Below are positions 13,757-22,901 of a stretch of DNA of 64,000 nucleotides, piece by piece. Position 1 is the stretch's first letter; each line of letters starts with the position of its first letter. The notes below the pieces were generated by a model. That model saw only the letters and a list, made by a program, of their open reading frames with translations, did not search any database and was not told the DNA's origin. The position numbers and the translations under genes were made by a program. Source of the stretch: a virus (Duplodnaviria; Heunggongvirae; Uroviricota; Caudoviricetes); IMG/VR virus record IMGVR_UViG_3300045051_000909, positions 64,001 through 128,000 of that record; one strand, given 5' to 3'.

Positions 13757-13757
13757 G

Positions 13758-13830
13758 TCGCGACGGGTGGACTCGAACCACCGCATGACGGCTTATGAGG
13801 CCGTTGCCTTTCCATCTTGGCTACGTCGCG
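13758..13830 (-). tRNA. tRNA-Met(CAU), elongator type (Ile2 not excluded)
   Basis: loop CT-CAT-AA; C1-G72 paired; no GGG/CCC in anticodon stem. Confidence 0.8.
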
Positions 13831-13833
13831 TTA

Positions 13834-13943
13834 TAGCGGGGGCAGGAATTGAACCTGCGTAGACCGGCGTATGAGACCAGTGAGTCTTGCCTAGGCTGGG
13901 CCTTCTGAGGGCTTCTGCGTCGGCTCCACTACTCTACCCCGCA
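13834..13943 (-). tRNA. initiator-like tRNA-Met(CAU) with 33-nt D-loop insertion
   Basis: U1/U72 mismatch, A11-U24, loop CT-CAT-AC; insert at 13896-13928. Confidence 0.75.
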
Positions 13944-14011
13944 AGCCCCAGGCGGGAATCGAACCCGCCGGCTGAACCTTAGGACGGTCCGCCAGATCCA
14001 TCGTCTGGGGC
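13944..14011 (-). tRNA. degenerate tRNA-Arg(CCU) with shortened D arm
   Basis: 68 nt; acceptor and T arm intact; loop GT-CCT-AA; only 14 nt between acceptor and anticodon stems. Confidence 0.6.
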
Positions 14012-14015
14012 GACT

Positions 14016-14089
14016 TGCTCTCGGCCGGAGTCGAACCGGCAACCTCACGCTTCGGAGGCGTGCGACCTATCCAGTTGATCGACGAGAGC
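14016..14089 (-). tRNA. tRNA-Arg(CCG)
   Basis: loop CT-CCG-AA. Confidence 0.9.
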
Positions 14090-14093
14090 GTAG

Positions 14094-14166
14094 CGTCCTC
14101 GGAAGGAGTCGAACCTTCATTCCGGGTTTCGTAGACCCGTGTGATATCCAGTTTCACTACGAGGAC
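14094..14166 (-). tRNA. tRNA-Arg(ACG)
   Basis: loop CT-ACG-AA. Confidence 0.9.
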
Positions 14167-14169
14167 GTA

Positions 14170-14243
<74 letters not shown>

Positions 14244-17962: not shown

Positions 17963-19234
17963 CTACTCACGTACCCGATGCTTCATCTCTCGTTCGAGTC
18001 GGCGCTGGTTCTTCCACGCCTTCTCGCTTTCCTTACGGTCGCGCCTCATCTTCTCGTCGTGCCCCTTGACTGTCAAGAGAGAGTGAAGCTCGAACATCGG
18101 CGTAACAAGGTCCGCTTGGTTCTGCATGACGACCTCGATGTCCTTGTAAGCCATCGCGATCTCGTCAAGCACGCCCTTGCCGATGTGGCACTCGACGCCT
18201 TTGGTGGACTCGCGGAGGTCGTCGAGCGTGAACGTCTTGTTGGCCTTGGACCGGCTCATCTTACGTCCAGCGCCATGGCTGGCGGACATCAGGCTCTCGG
18301 GATTGCCGAGGCCTTGCACGATGAAGCTCTTGCGCCCCATGGCCCCAGGGATGATGCCCCACTGACCTTCCTTGGCTTCGATGGCGCCCTTGCGTGCGAC
18401 GATCAGTTTCTCGCCATCGATAACTTCCTCGGTGGCGTAGTTGTGATGGCAGCTGACCCGCATATCGACGGGAGCGTAATCGAGACCCTCAGCGTGCAGA
18501 GCCGACAGCAGAAGGTCCATCATCAGTTGCCGGTTCAGCCGCGCGTACTCCTGCGCGGTCTGCATGTCACGCCAGTAATCGGCGAAGTCAGGGGACTCTC
18601 GCGGAAACACGGCGATGCGCTTGTCCGGAAGATCCCGGTTGATTGGGTGTTCCTCGGCCAGGTGCGCATAGCTATCGGCGACCTCCTTGCCGAAGTTGCG
18701 TGAACCCGAGTGCAGCATGAGCCAGATGCGCCCTTCTTGATCCTCGCACACCTCGATGAAGTGATTCCCCGAACCGAGGGTTCCCATTTGACGCTTGGCA
18801 TTCTCGAGGGAACAGCGAGACTGCCTGGTCTGCTTGACGCGCTCCCACAGCTCCTCGAACTCAGGAGCCTTGGTGCCCGGATGCGCCGTCTCATGCGCAC
18901 AGCCGGTACCATTGGGGATGAACTCCTCGATGCGTAGGCGCAGACCCTTGAGGTCCTTCGGCAACATCGCGGGTGTGAGTGAGGTGCGCAGAGCATCCAT
19001 CCCGCATCCGATGTCAACACCGACGATGCCCGGGGCAACGGCGTCCTTCAACGCCACGACGCTCCCGACGGGGACGCCGAACCCCGCGTGCACGTCCGGC
19101 ATGGCGCGCACGTAGCGTGCGCTCGGCAGATTGGCGGTGTTACGAAGTTGCGTTAGCGCCTCGGACTCCACCTCATGGAGCGGCGCCCACAGCAGTACAG
19201 GCACTTGCTGCCCGTCCATCCGTGAGATCGACAT
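17963..19234 (-). CDS. rtcB: RNA 2',3'-cyclic phosphate/3'-phosphate-5'-OH ligase RtcB
   Basis: MPDVHAG, GVDIGCG, GTLGSGNHF, LHSGSR, HHNY, RKGA, SHGAGR, DEIAMAYK. Confidence 0.96.
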   Translation of the reverse strand: MSISRMDGQQVPVLLWAPLHEVESEALTQLRNTANLPSARYVRAMPDVHAGFGVPVGSVVALKDAVAPGIVGVDIGCGMDALRTSLTPAMLPKDLKGLRLRIEEFIPNGTGCAHETAHPGTKAPEFEELWERVKQTRQSRCSLENAKRQMGTLGSGNHFIEVCEDQEGRIWLMLHSGSRNFGKEVADSYAHLAEEHPINRDLPDKRIAVFPRESPDFADYWRDMQTAQEYARLNRQLMMDLLLSALHAEGLDYAPVDMRVSCHHNYATEEVIDGEKLIVARKGAIEAKEGQWGIIPGAMGRKSFIVQGLGNPESLMSASHGAGRKMSRSKANKTFTLDDLRESTKGVECHIGKGVLDEIAMAYKDIEVVMQNQADLVTPMFELHSLLTVKGHDEKMRRDRKESEKAWKNQRRLEREMKHRVRE

Positions 19235-22784: not shown

Positions 22785-22901
22785 GCCGGCGCGCTACCTC
22801 TACGCTACGGTCTACTCAACGTACTCGGCTAATCTGTCTCGCGAGACTCAGATCAGTTGCTACGCCTTTTAACCGACGGGATTCGAACCCGCTCCTCCGG
22901 C
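22785..22901 (-). ncRNA. circularly permuted tRNA-like RNA (YrlA/Y-RNA-like architecture)
   Basis: GCCGG-AGGA-GCGGG TTCGAAT CCCGT-CGGTT...GACCG-TAGCGTAGAGGTAGCGC-G-CCGGC; opened at the anticodon, acceptor capped by a hairpin. Confidence 0.7.

Follow-up and report, generated by a model that had tools for sequence, protein, structure and literature searches.

The elbow formed by the D loop and the T loop is among the most conserved parts of a tRNA, and to our knowledge the textbook fifth arm is confined to the variable region of the tRNAs for Ser, Leu, Tyr, and Sec. Bacterial initiator tRNAs are marked for formylation by a 1:72 mismatch together with positions 2:71 and 3:70, and natural initiator variants of the types au/GC/GC and GC/GC/gu exist (PMC5389676). 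For archaeal tRNAs, position 20/21 is a published site of non-canonical introns (PMC4090602). In the literature, we found no account of phage tRNAs with an arm in the D loop, nor of tRNA splicing in phages. In this study, we analyzed a 110-nt initiator-type tRNA-Met gene from a phage tRNA array, the D loop of which contains a 36-nt insert. As judged from sequence comparison, the gene probably (at a rough probability of 0.55) encodes a functional initiator-type tRNA-Met that keeps this insert as a fifth arm.

The window, that is, the whole stretch of 64,000 nucleotides that was analyzed, belongs to a 194,266-bp virus record from rhizosphere metagenomes. ARAGORN located 39 tRNAs and, like Rfam, a tmRNA on its minus strand at approximately 11.4 to 24.8 kb, where they form a one-strand array with interspersed protein genes, RtcB among them. 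The 110-nt gene is packed like the other members of the array, with spacers of 1 nt upstream and 3 nt downstream to the neighboring genes. In the deduced tRNA, U1 stands opposite U72 (13835), A73 is nucleotide 13834, and pairs 2-7:66-71 form the acceptor stem; U8 and A9 precede the D stem, A26 precedes the anticodon arm, and the variable region is UCUAC (5 nt). Pairing is complete in the four canonical stems, and both the T loop and the anticodon loop are intact. The D loop has 45 nt (13930-13886), the length given in an earlier note on this DNA. The coordinates of the features are collected in Table 1.

Table 1. Features of the initiator-type tRNA gene and its surroundings in the window
Feature	Positions	Strand	Basis or remark
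RtcB RNA ligase gene in the tRNA array	17963..19234	-	Pfam PF01139, E 1.4e-109; genomic context
Initiator-type tRNA-Met(CAU) gene, 110 nt, CCA not encoded	13834..13943	-	Sequence reading; ARAGORN after insert deletion; family covariation
U1, acceptor 5' strand GCGGGG, and U8	13936..13943	-	Pairs with 13836-13841 (CCCCGC); sequence reading
D stem 5' strand GAGU (A11)	13931..13934	-	Pairs with ACUC 13882-13885 (U24)
D loop 5' part AGUGGA, with elbow G18 G19	13925..13930	-	AGU(NN)GGAG in 8/8 of the family; AGUGG in uninterrupted alleles
D-loop insert, 36 nt, candidate fifth arm	13889..13924	-	Base pairs in register with hairpins of 7 relatives
10-nt tandem repeat CAGAAGCCCU / CAGAAGGCCC within the insert	13898..13917	-	Sequence reading
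D loop 3' part AAG, from insert to D stem	13886..13888	-	Relatives: GAAA, GUAA, GUAG, or GCA
Anticodon arm CUGGU - CUCAUAC - GCCGG; CAU at 13871-13873	13864..13880	-	Sequence reading
T arm GCAGG-UUCAAUU-CCUGC	13842..13858	-	Partial Rfam match and sequence reading
Ordinary tRNA-Met(CAU), C1-G72 paired, elongator type	13757..13830	-	ARAGORN; Rfam tRNA 64.8 bits

Positions 13788-14226 of the window recurred, identical and without gaps, in a 439-nt contig that another study had obtained from another sample (X4), and the depth across the region was 24 in the probable source run (X1). The insert is therefore real DNA, and the assembly artefact that the earlier note had named as one of the outcomes that would overturn its reading is ruled out. 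The 110-nt gene was called neither by ARAGORN nor by Rfam at the gathering threshold; Rfam gave only a partial tRNA match of 16.8 bits to the 3' two-thirds of the gene, and ARAGORN called tRNA-Met(CAT) after each of four alternative deletions of the insert. No further copy of the insert beyond chance 10- to 12-mers was found in the 194-kb genome, which rules out a repeated or mobile element. An exact 25-mer from the 3' half of the gene had no match in IMG/VR, and blastn searches for cultured-phage relatives, with the region and its homologue L116 against 50,697 phage records, returned just ordinary tRNA matches.

The earlier note had described the gene as an initiator-like tRNA-Met, and its three hallmarks, namely, the 1:72 mismatch, A11:U24, and CAU, are all present. 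A11:U24 belongs to the D stem GAGU/ACUC, and CAU lies within a 7-nt loop, CUCAUAC, in which position 38 is C where A is usual. The formylation determinants consist of the U1.U72 mismatch, G2:C71, and C3:G70, and 1:72 is unpaired in all eight members of the insert-bearing family described below. By contrast, the three consecutive G:C pairs of initiators (29:41, 30:40, and 31:39) are incomplete; G29:C41 and G30:C40 are found, as the earlier note had read, and 31:39 is U.G. The variants known from the literature keep a purine:pyrimidine order (PMC5389676), whereas U31.G39 is pyrimidine:purine, which is the opposite orientation. In the sole other tRNA with CAU that was called in the window, C1 pairs with G72, and the AUA codon is served by a tRNA-Ile(UAU) called by ARAGORN; the 110-nt gene is thus the initiator candidate of the phage by elimination. 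No second initiator-like tRNA is found among the tRNA genes of the window. Formyltransferase (Fmt) and deformylase (Pdf) genes were sought in the phages, and none was found, so that host enzymes would have to act on the tRNA.

Using the 17-mer at the 5' end of the window gene, we retrieved uninterrupted phage alleles (L312, L313, L316, L317, L318, L319, and L062), the kind of relatives with which the earlier note had proposed a comparison. Their D loops are AGUGGUU, AGUGGCCUA, and similar. Both U31.G39 and C38 (in the CUCAUAC loop) are common to the window gene and the uninterrupted alleles L312, L313, L316, and L318, which indicates that these are traits of a phage tRNA class and not signs of decay. 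Because uninterrupted alleles share the 17-mer, U31.G39, and CUCAUAC, the tRNA body is that of a normal member of this class. The window gene is the uninterrupted phage tRNA class plus a D-loop insert.

The earlier note had placed the insert at 13896-13928. Removal of this segment does leave AGCCUAGGCAAG, but it would also take out the conserved UGGAG; since the GGAG with the D-loop GG sits 5' of the insert throughout the family of eight, the segment is not a natural unit, and these boundaries are ruled out. The insert is instead closed by G 13924 with C 13889. Its closing helix consists of three pairs (G-C, C-G, and C-G), inside which are 3x3 and 4x3 internal loops, 2-bp and 3-bp helices, and a 7-nt loop, and its apex is GCC-CUCAGAA-GGC. 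The self-pairing of the ends claimed for the shorter segment exists as UGG/CCA but is weak and amounts to nothing more than these 3 bp, and the two CAGAAG copies that had been seen are part of the 10-nt tandem repeat. With a minimum free energy (MFE) of -5.8 against a shuffle mean of -7.4 (z +0.67), the insert folds no better than shuffled sequences; the probability of the closing helix is approximately 0.55 with the cloverleaf enforced, and that of the D stem is approximately 10% in the unconstrained ensemble. The window insert is the least tidy member of its family and is unusually long and loosely paired.

A group I intron requires at least 200 nt, a P1-P9 fold, and a position in the anticodon loop, whereas the insert has 36 nt and lies in the D loop; it is too short, as had been noted before, and Rfam gave no intron match at the gene. 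The gene is not of class II, in which the arm lies between positions 44 and 48, because its variable region has 5 nt and the arm is in the D loop. The apical CUCAGAA was considered as the loop of a second anticodon arm and was ruled out, as this loop is not shared by the relatives.

A pattern scan for the initiator acceptor strands combined with an over-long stretch ahead of CUCAUA found the design of the window gene in L043 (a 389-kb contig) and L044 (a 194-kb contig) from IMG/VR and in L116, L138, L156, L180, and L190 from JGI metagenomes. Together with the window, these form a family of eight (L043 is the same as L106). All the loci lie inside dense phage tRNA arrays, that of L116 also including a tmRNA. 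In L044, L116, L138, L156, and L190, the gene is directly flanked by tRNA-Thr(CGU) and tRNA-Thr(UGU); L180 has the same order, tRNA-Thr(CGU)/gene/tRNA-Thr(UGU), but with a gap. In all eight members, the D loop starts with AGU(0-2 nt)GGAG, directly followed by the insert (20-36 nt in the phages), and the last G of GGAG pairs with the C that closes the insert, after which 3-4 purine-rich bases lead to the D stem.

In the alignment of the eight members (A1), 96.9% of the cells in the cloverleaf around the insert were paired, and 9 of 20 pairs had changed on both sides in a compensatory manner. None of 500 shuffles reached the observed pairing, and slid controls gave 34-54%. The acceptor is invariant in all eight; a compensatory change at 11:24 separates the window and L043, with A:U, from the remaining six, with G:C, and four of the five T-stem pairs covary. 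The gene is therefore more than a product of chance, because the cloverleaf that encloses the insert covaries in eight members with no equal among the shuffles. When the inserts were anchored at their bases, 51 of 56 cells (91%) were paired, compared with 15-52% after sliding by one or two positions. Pair 0 of the insert is G-C throughout, and pairs 1 (GU, GC, AU, and CG) and 2 (UA, GC, UG, AU, and CG) are formed in every member; the insert sequences are otherwise unrelated across the family. Five relatives have insert hairpins of 8-12 bp with z values of -2.6 to -3.6 against shuffles, and the inserts of L156 and L043 are GAAA-capped stems, each with a defect. This comparison demonstrates the gene and its cloverleaf, the site of the insert, its closure by base pairs, and its recurrence in phage arrays. 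It also supports the extra-arm tRNA, which the earlier note had listed as an alternative, since the design recurs in seven other phage arrays with its base pairs in register. The family appears to represent a covarying D-loop arm on initiator-type tRNAs of at least eight large phages, to which archaeal intron genes provide a contrast at the same site.

The insert-bearing relative closest to the window, L043:2412-2511 (+) (L106), comes from a record of 389 kb with the class of a provirus; its 1:72 mismatch is A1.A72, its T arm is irregular (with C.C opposite each other or an 8-nt loop), and its genome lacks RtcB. In L044, L116, L138, and L180 of the GGGA subfamily, GAAAC at the 3' D-loop/D-stem side is perfectly complementary to GUUUC of the variable loop, so that in the MFE folds of these four, an anticodon arm extended to 11 bp is preferred to the D stem. 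This predicted long arm was rejected, as its pairing is interrupted in L156 and L190 and the window lacks it.

Syntenic relatives were sought via the neighboring AAA-ATPase, the nearest homologue of which (P0002) has 71% identity. At the P0005 and P0008 loci, no tRNA array was found beside the AAA-ATPase gene, and L001, a 209-kb related phage, was the only syntenic case. Its initiator tRNA (L001:11290-11376, plus strand) has C1xA72, three G:C pairs, and an extra hairpin, GGC-GCAA-GCC, which is located in the variable loop and not in the D loop. A second scan found at least 13 distinct initiator-like tRNAs with a variable-loop hairpin in large IMG/VR phages (e.g., L053-L071), among them that of L001 and many with U1.U72. 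Extra arms on such tRNAs are therefore common in phages, and their occurrence in the variable loop of the same tRNA type also suggests that phages tend to retain such arms.

Other tRNA-like RNAs of unusual form were also observed. Directly upstream of the gene, the minus strand at 13945-14011 contains a 67-nt tRNA-Arg(CCU)-like RNA missed by ARAGORN, for which the only Rfam match was tRNA-Sec (22 bits). Its acceptor and T arm are normal, and its anticodon arm consists of an 8-bp stem, in which an A is bulged, and the loop GUCCUAA, but a 12-nt unpaired stretch takes the place of the D arm, and the variable loop is absent; L001, L044, L116, and L190 have an ordinary tRNA-Arg(CCU) instead. At 22860-22900 (minus strand), a T-loop motif, GGUUCGAAUCC, lies outside the called tRNAs in surroundings that resemble a rearranged tRNA. 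Furthermore, 12 related IMG/VR viral contigs (L036-L039, L041, L042, L045, L047-L049, L051, and L052) have a perfect tRNA-fMet 3' half, from the anticodon loop to CCCCGC, after AGCGGGGU. The two are separated by 56 nt of structured sequence that is not tRNA and forms two covarying hairpins, and the D arm and the 5' strand of the anticodon stem are absent. This element may be either a remnant of the attP type or a tRNA-framed RNA.

In GTDB genomes, the pattern scan matched initiator tRNAs of Thermoplasmata (61) and Nitrosopumilaceae (34) that are interrupted at the same place in the D loop and have A1-U72 and three G:C pairs. The interrupted genes have approximately 100-104 nt in Thermoplasmata and 87-95 nt in Nitrosopumilaceae (L073-L191 and L192-L311; examples are L073:5509-5608 and L072:380-466), the interruption follows AGUCAGGA or AGUCAGAC, and such genes are very abundant in peat, soil, and marine metagenomes. 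Matches in Streptomyces and other bacteria were discarded as artefacts that arise from a GCGGGGT repeat upstream or from N-masking. In the archaeal signature, the exon end pairs with the 3' end of the intron in a 4-bp helix (CAGG/CCUG), beyond which come a 3-nt bulge and a long inner helix. Because these inserts covary and possess this helix of exon and intron together with bulges, they presumably represent bulge-helix-bulge introns at approximately position 20/21. We scanned for a 4-bp helix flanked by 3-nt bulges, with the archaeal initiator tRNAs as positive controls; the controls were positive, whereas no bulge-helix-bulge motif was found in the D region of the window gene, even with one flanking helix. 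The scan was noisy for the phage relatives, some of which may have a few weak alternative pairings; in the MFE folds, their insert stems are continuous or near-continuous helices without bulges offset by 4 bp. The tRNA-splicing endonuclease domain PF01974 (EndA) was absent from the four phage genomes G000, G001, G002, and G003. RtcB is present in three of these four, G001 and G003 among them, and absent from G002, which has the insert-bearing design.

These data bear on the alternative that the insert is an intron, with a phage or host endonuclease cutting at its base and RtcB rejoining the ends to yield a 74- to 77-nt initiator tRNA. The presence of RtcB in the tRNA array of the window and in G001 and G003 fits this explanation, as do the acceptance of the insert-deleted tRNA by ARAGORN and the existence of the uninterrupted alleles, which shows that the arm is dispensable for the tRNA body. 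Because the initiators of Thermoplasmata and Nitrosopumilaceae are interrupted at the same D-loop site, a spliced insert would also have a precedent there, and 20/21 is a listed intron position (PMC4090602). The absence of the bulge-helix-bulge from the window, of PF01974 from the four genomes, and of RtcB from one insert carrier nevertheless goes against archaeal-style splicing, which the earlier note had proposed, and the junction sequence is poorly conserved beyond GGAG and the G-C pair. A tmRNA implies a bacterial host, so the host of the window phage is bacterial, and we know of no tRNA-splicing endonuclease in bacteria; the RtcB of phages is sufficiently explained by the repair of nuclease-cut tRNAs. 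An intron is therefore quite unlikely, and we regard as more doubtful still the specific proposal that a bacteriophage splices a tRNA in the archaeal style, with an unrecognized endonuclease excising the D-loop insert and the phage RtcB sealing the ends.

A decaying or impaired allele, in which an event such as the 10-nt tandem duplication broke up a clean ancestral arm and left a poorly folded, little-used tRNA, would account for the z value of the insert compared with those of the five relatives, the repeat itself, and the low ensemble probability of the D stem. The lack of a normal D arm in the adjacent tRNA-Arg(CCU)-like gene and the aberrant T arm of L043, the closest insert-bearing relative, are in line with this explanation. 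However, all four canonical stems are paired, the T and anticodon loops are intact, the arm still forms its first three base pairs in the register of the family, U31.G39 and C38 belong to the tRNA class as such, the window's tRNA genes include no other initiator-like tRNA, and the same sequence was found in two independent samples; we thus consider decay unlikely, although it is the least so among the alternatives. The gene might also encode a non-decoding tRNA mimic, for example, a decoy that diverts host enzymes from initiator tRNA or, through its arm, the ligand of a phage protein. Evasion of the anticodon nucleases of the host is known for phage tRNAs (PMC10264068), and the window contains other non-ordinary tRNA-like RNAs, namely, the T-loop motif at 22888 and the odd Arg-like gene. 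Such a role seems improbable, as the anticodon loop, the acceptor identity elements, and the 1:72 mismatch are conserved as in a working initiator, and a partner protein was not found. A built-in fifth arm is likelier than an archaeal-style intron or a dead gene because the design recurs in at least seven other large phages. At the same time, the window arm is long, is weakly folded, and contains a 10-nt tandem repeat, which leaves some room for decay or for an unknown mode of splicing.

The insert directly follows the nucleotides of the elbow (AGUGGA / arm / AAG), at the length-variable place of the D loop around 20/20a. The D-loop bases after G18 G19 face the solvent, so a helix at this point need not break the elbow. 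If the insert is a retained fifth arm, the array would be transcribed as a precursor and probably cut by host RNase P and 3' processing enzymes, with CCA then added. Host MetRS would be expected to charge the tRNA via CAU and A73, and the host formyltransferase would accept it owing to the 1:72 mismatch, G2:C71, C3:G70, and A11:U24. The product would serve as the only initiator-like tRNA of the phage, and the arm would stick out at the outer corner of its L-shape. As a guess, the arm may alter recognition by host nucleases or toxins that target tRNA, or it may be merely tolerated.

A retained arm would mean that MetRS, the formyltransferase, IF2, and the P site tolerate a large appendage at the elbow. 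It would also mean that standard tRNA finders systematically miss such genes; as finders miss D-loop-armed genes, phages said to be missing an initiator can be wrongly so called. If the arm protects against host enzymes that target initiator tRNA, it would represent a new kind of counter-defence. If the arm is removed instead, protein-dependent tRNA splicing would be linked to bacteria for the first time.

Among known tRNAs, the window tRNA resembles E. coli tRNA(fMet) (metZWV/metY) in CAU, a non-Watson-Crick 1:72, A73, A11:U24, G29:C41, and G30:C40, and its acceptor 2-7:66-71 is GCGGGG/CCCCGC, which we take to be that of the E. coli initiator. By analogy with the latter, it would not need to pass through the ribosomal A site. 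The two differ in that the window tRNA has U1.U72 where E. coli has C1xA72, U.G at 31:39 where E. coli has G:C, an anticodon loop that ends with C38, and a D-loop arm of 36 nt, giving 110 nt compared with 77. Class II tRNAs and the variable-loop-armed phage initiators (L001 and L053-L071) are five-armed, as the window tRNA probably is, and the phage initiators also share with it an initiator-like acceptor, a 1:72 mismatch, and a place in large-phage arrays; however, their fifth arm is at 44-48, whereas that of the window tRNA is in the D loop. The archaeal initiators with D-loop introns have their inserts at the same site as the phage genes, just after GG(A), and of similar length (12-30 nt in archaea and 20-36 nt in phages). 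By contrast, the archaeal genes possess the 4-bp helix with 3-nt bulges required by EndA, whereas the phage inserts are plain hairpins, or an irregular stem in the window, and no EndA is encoded in the four phage genomes.
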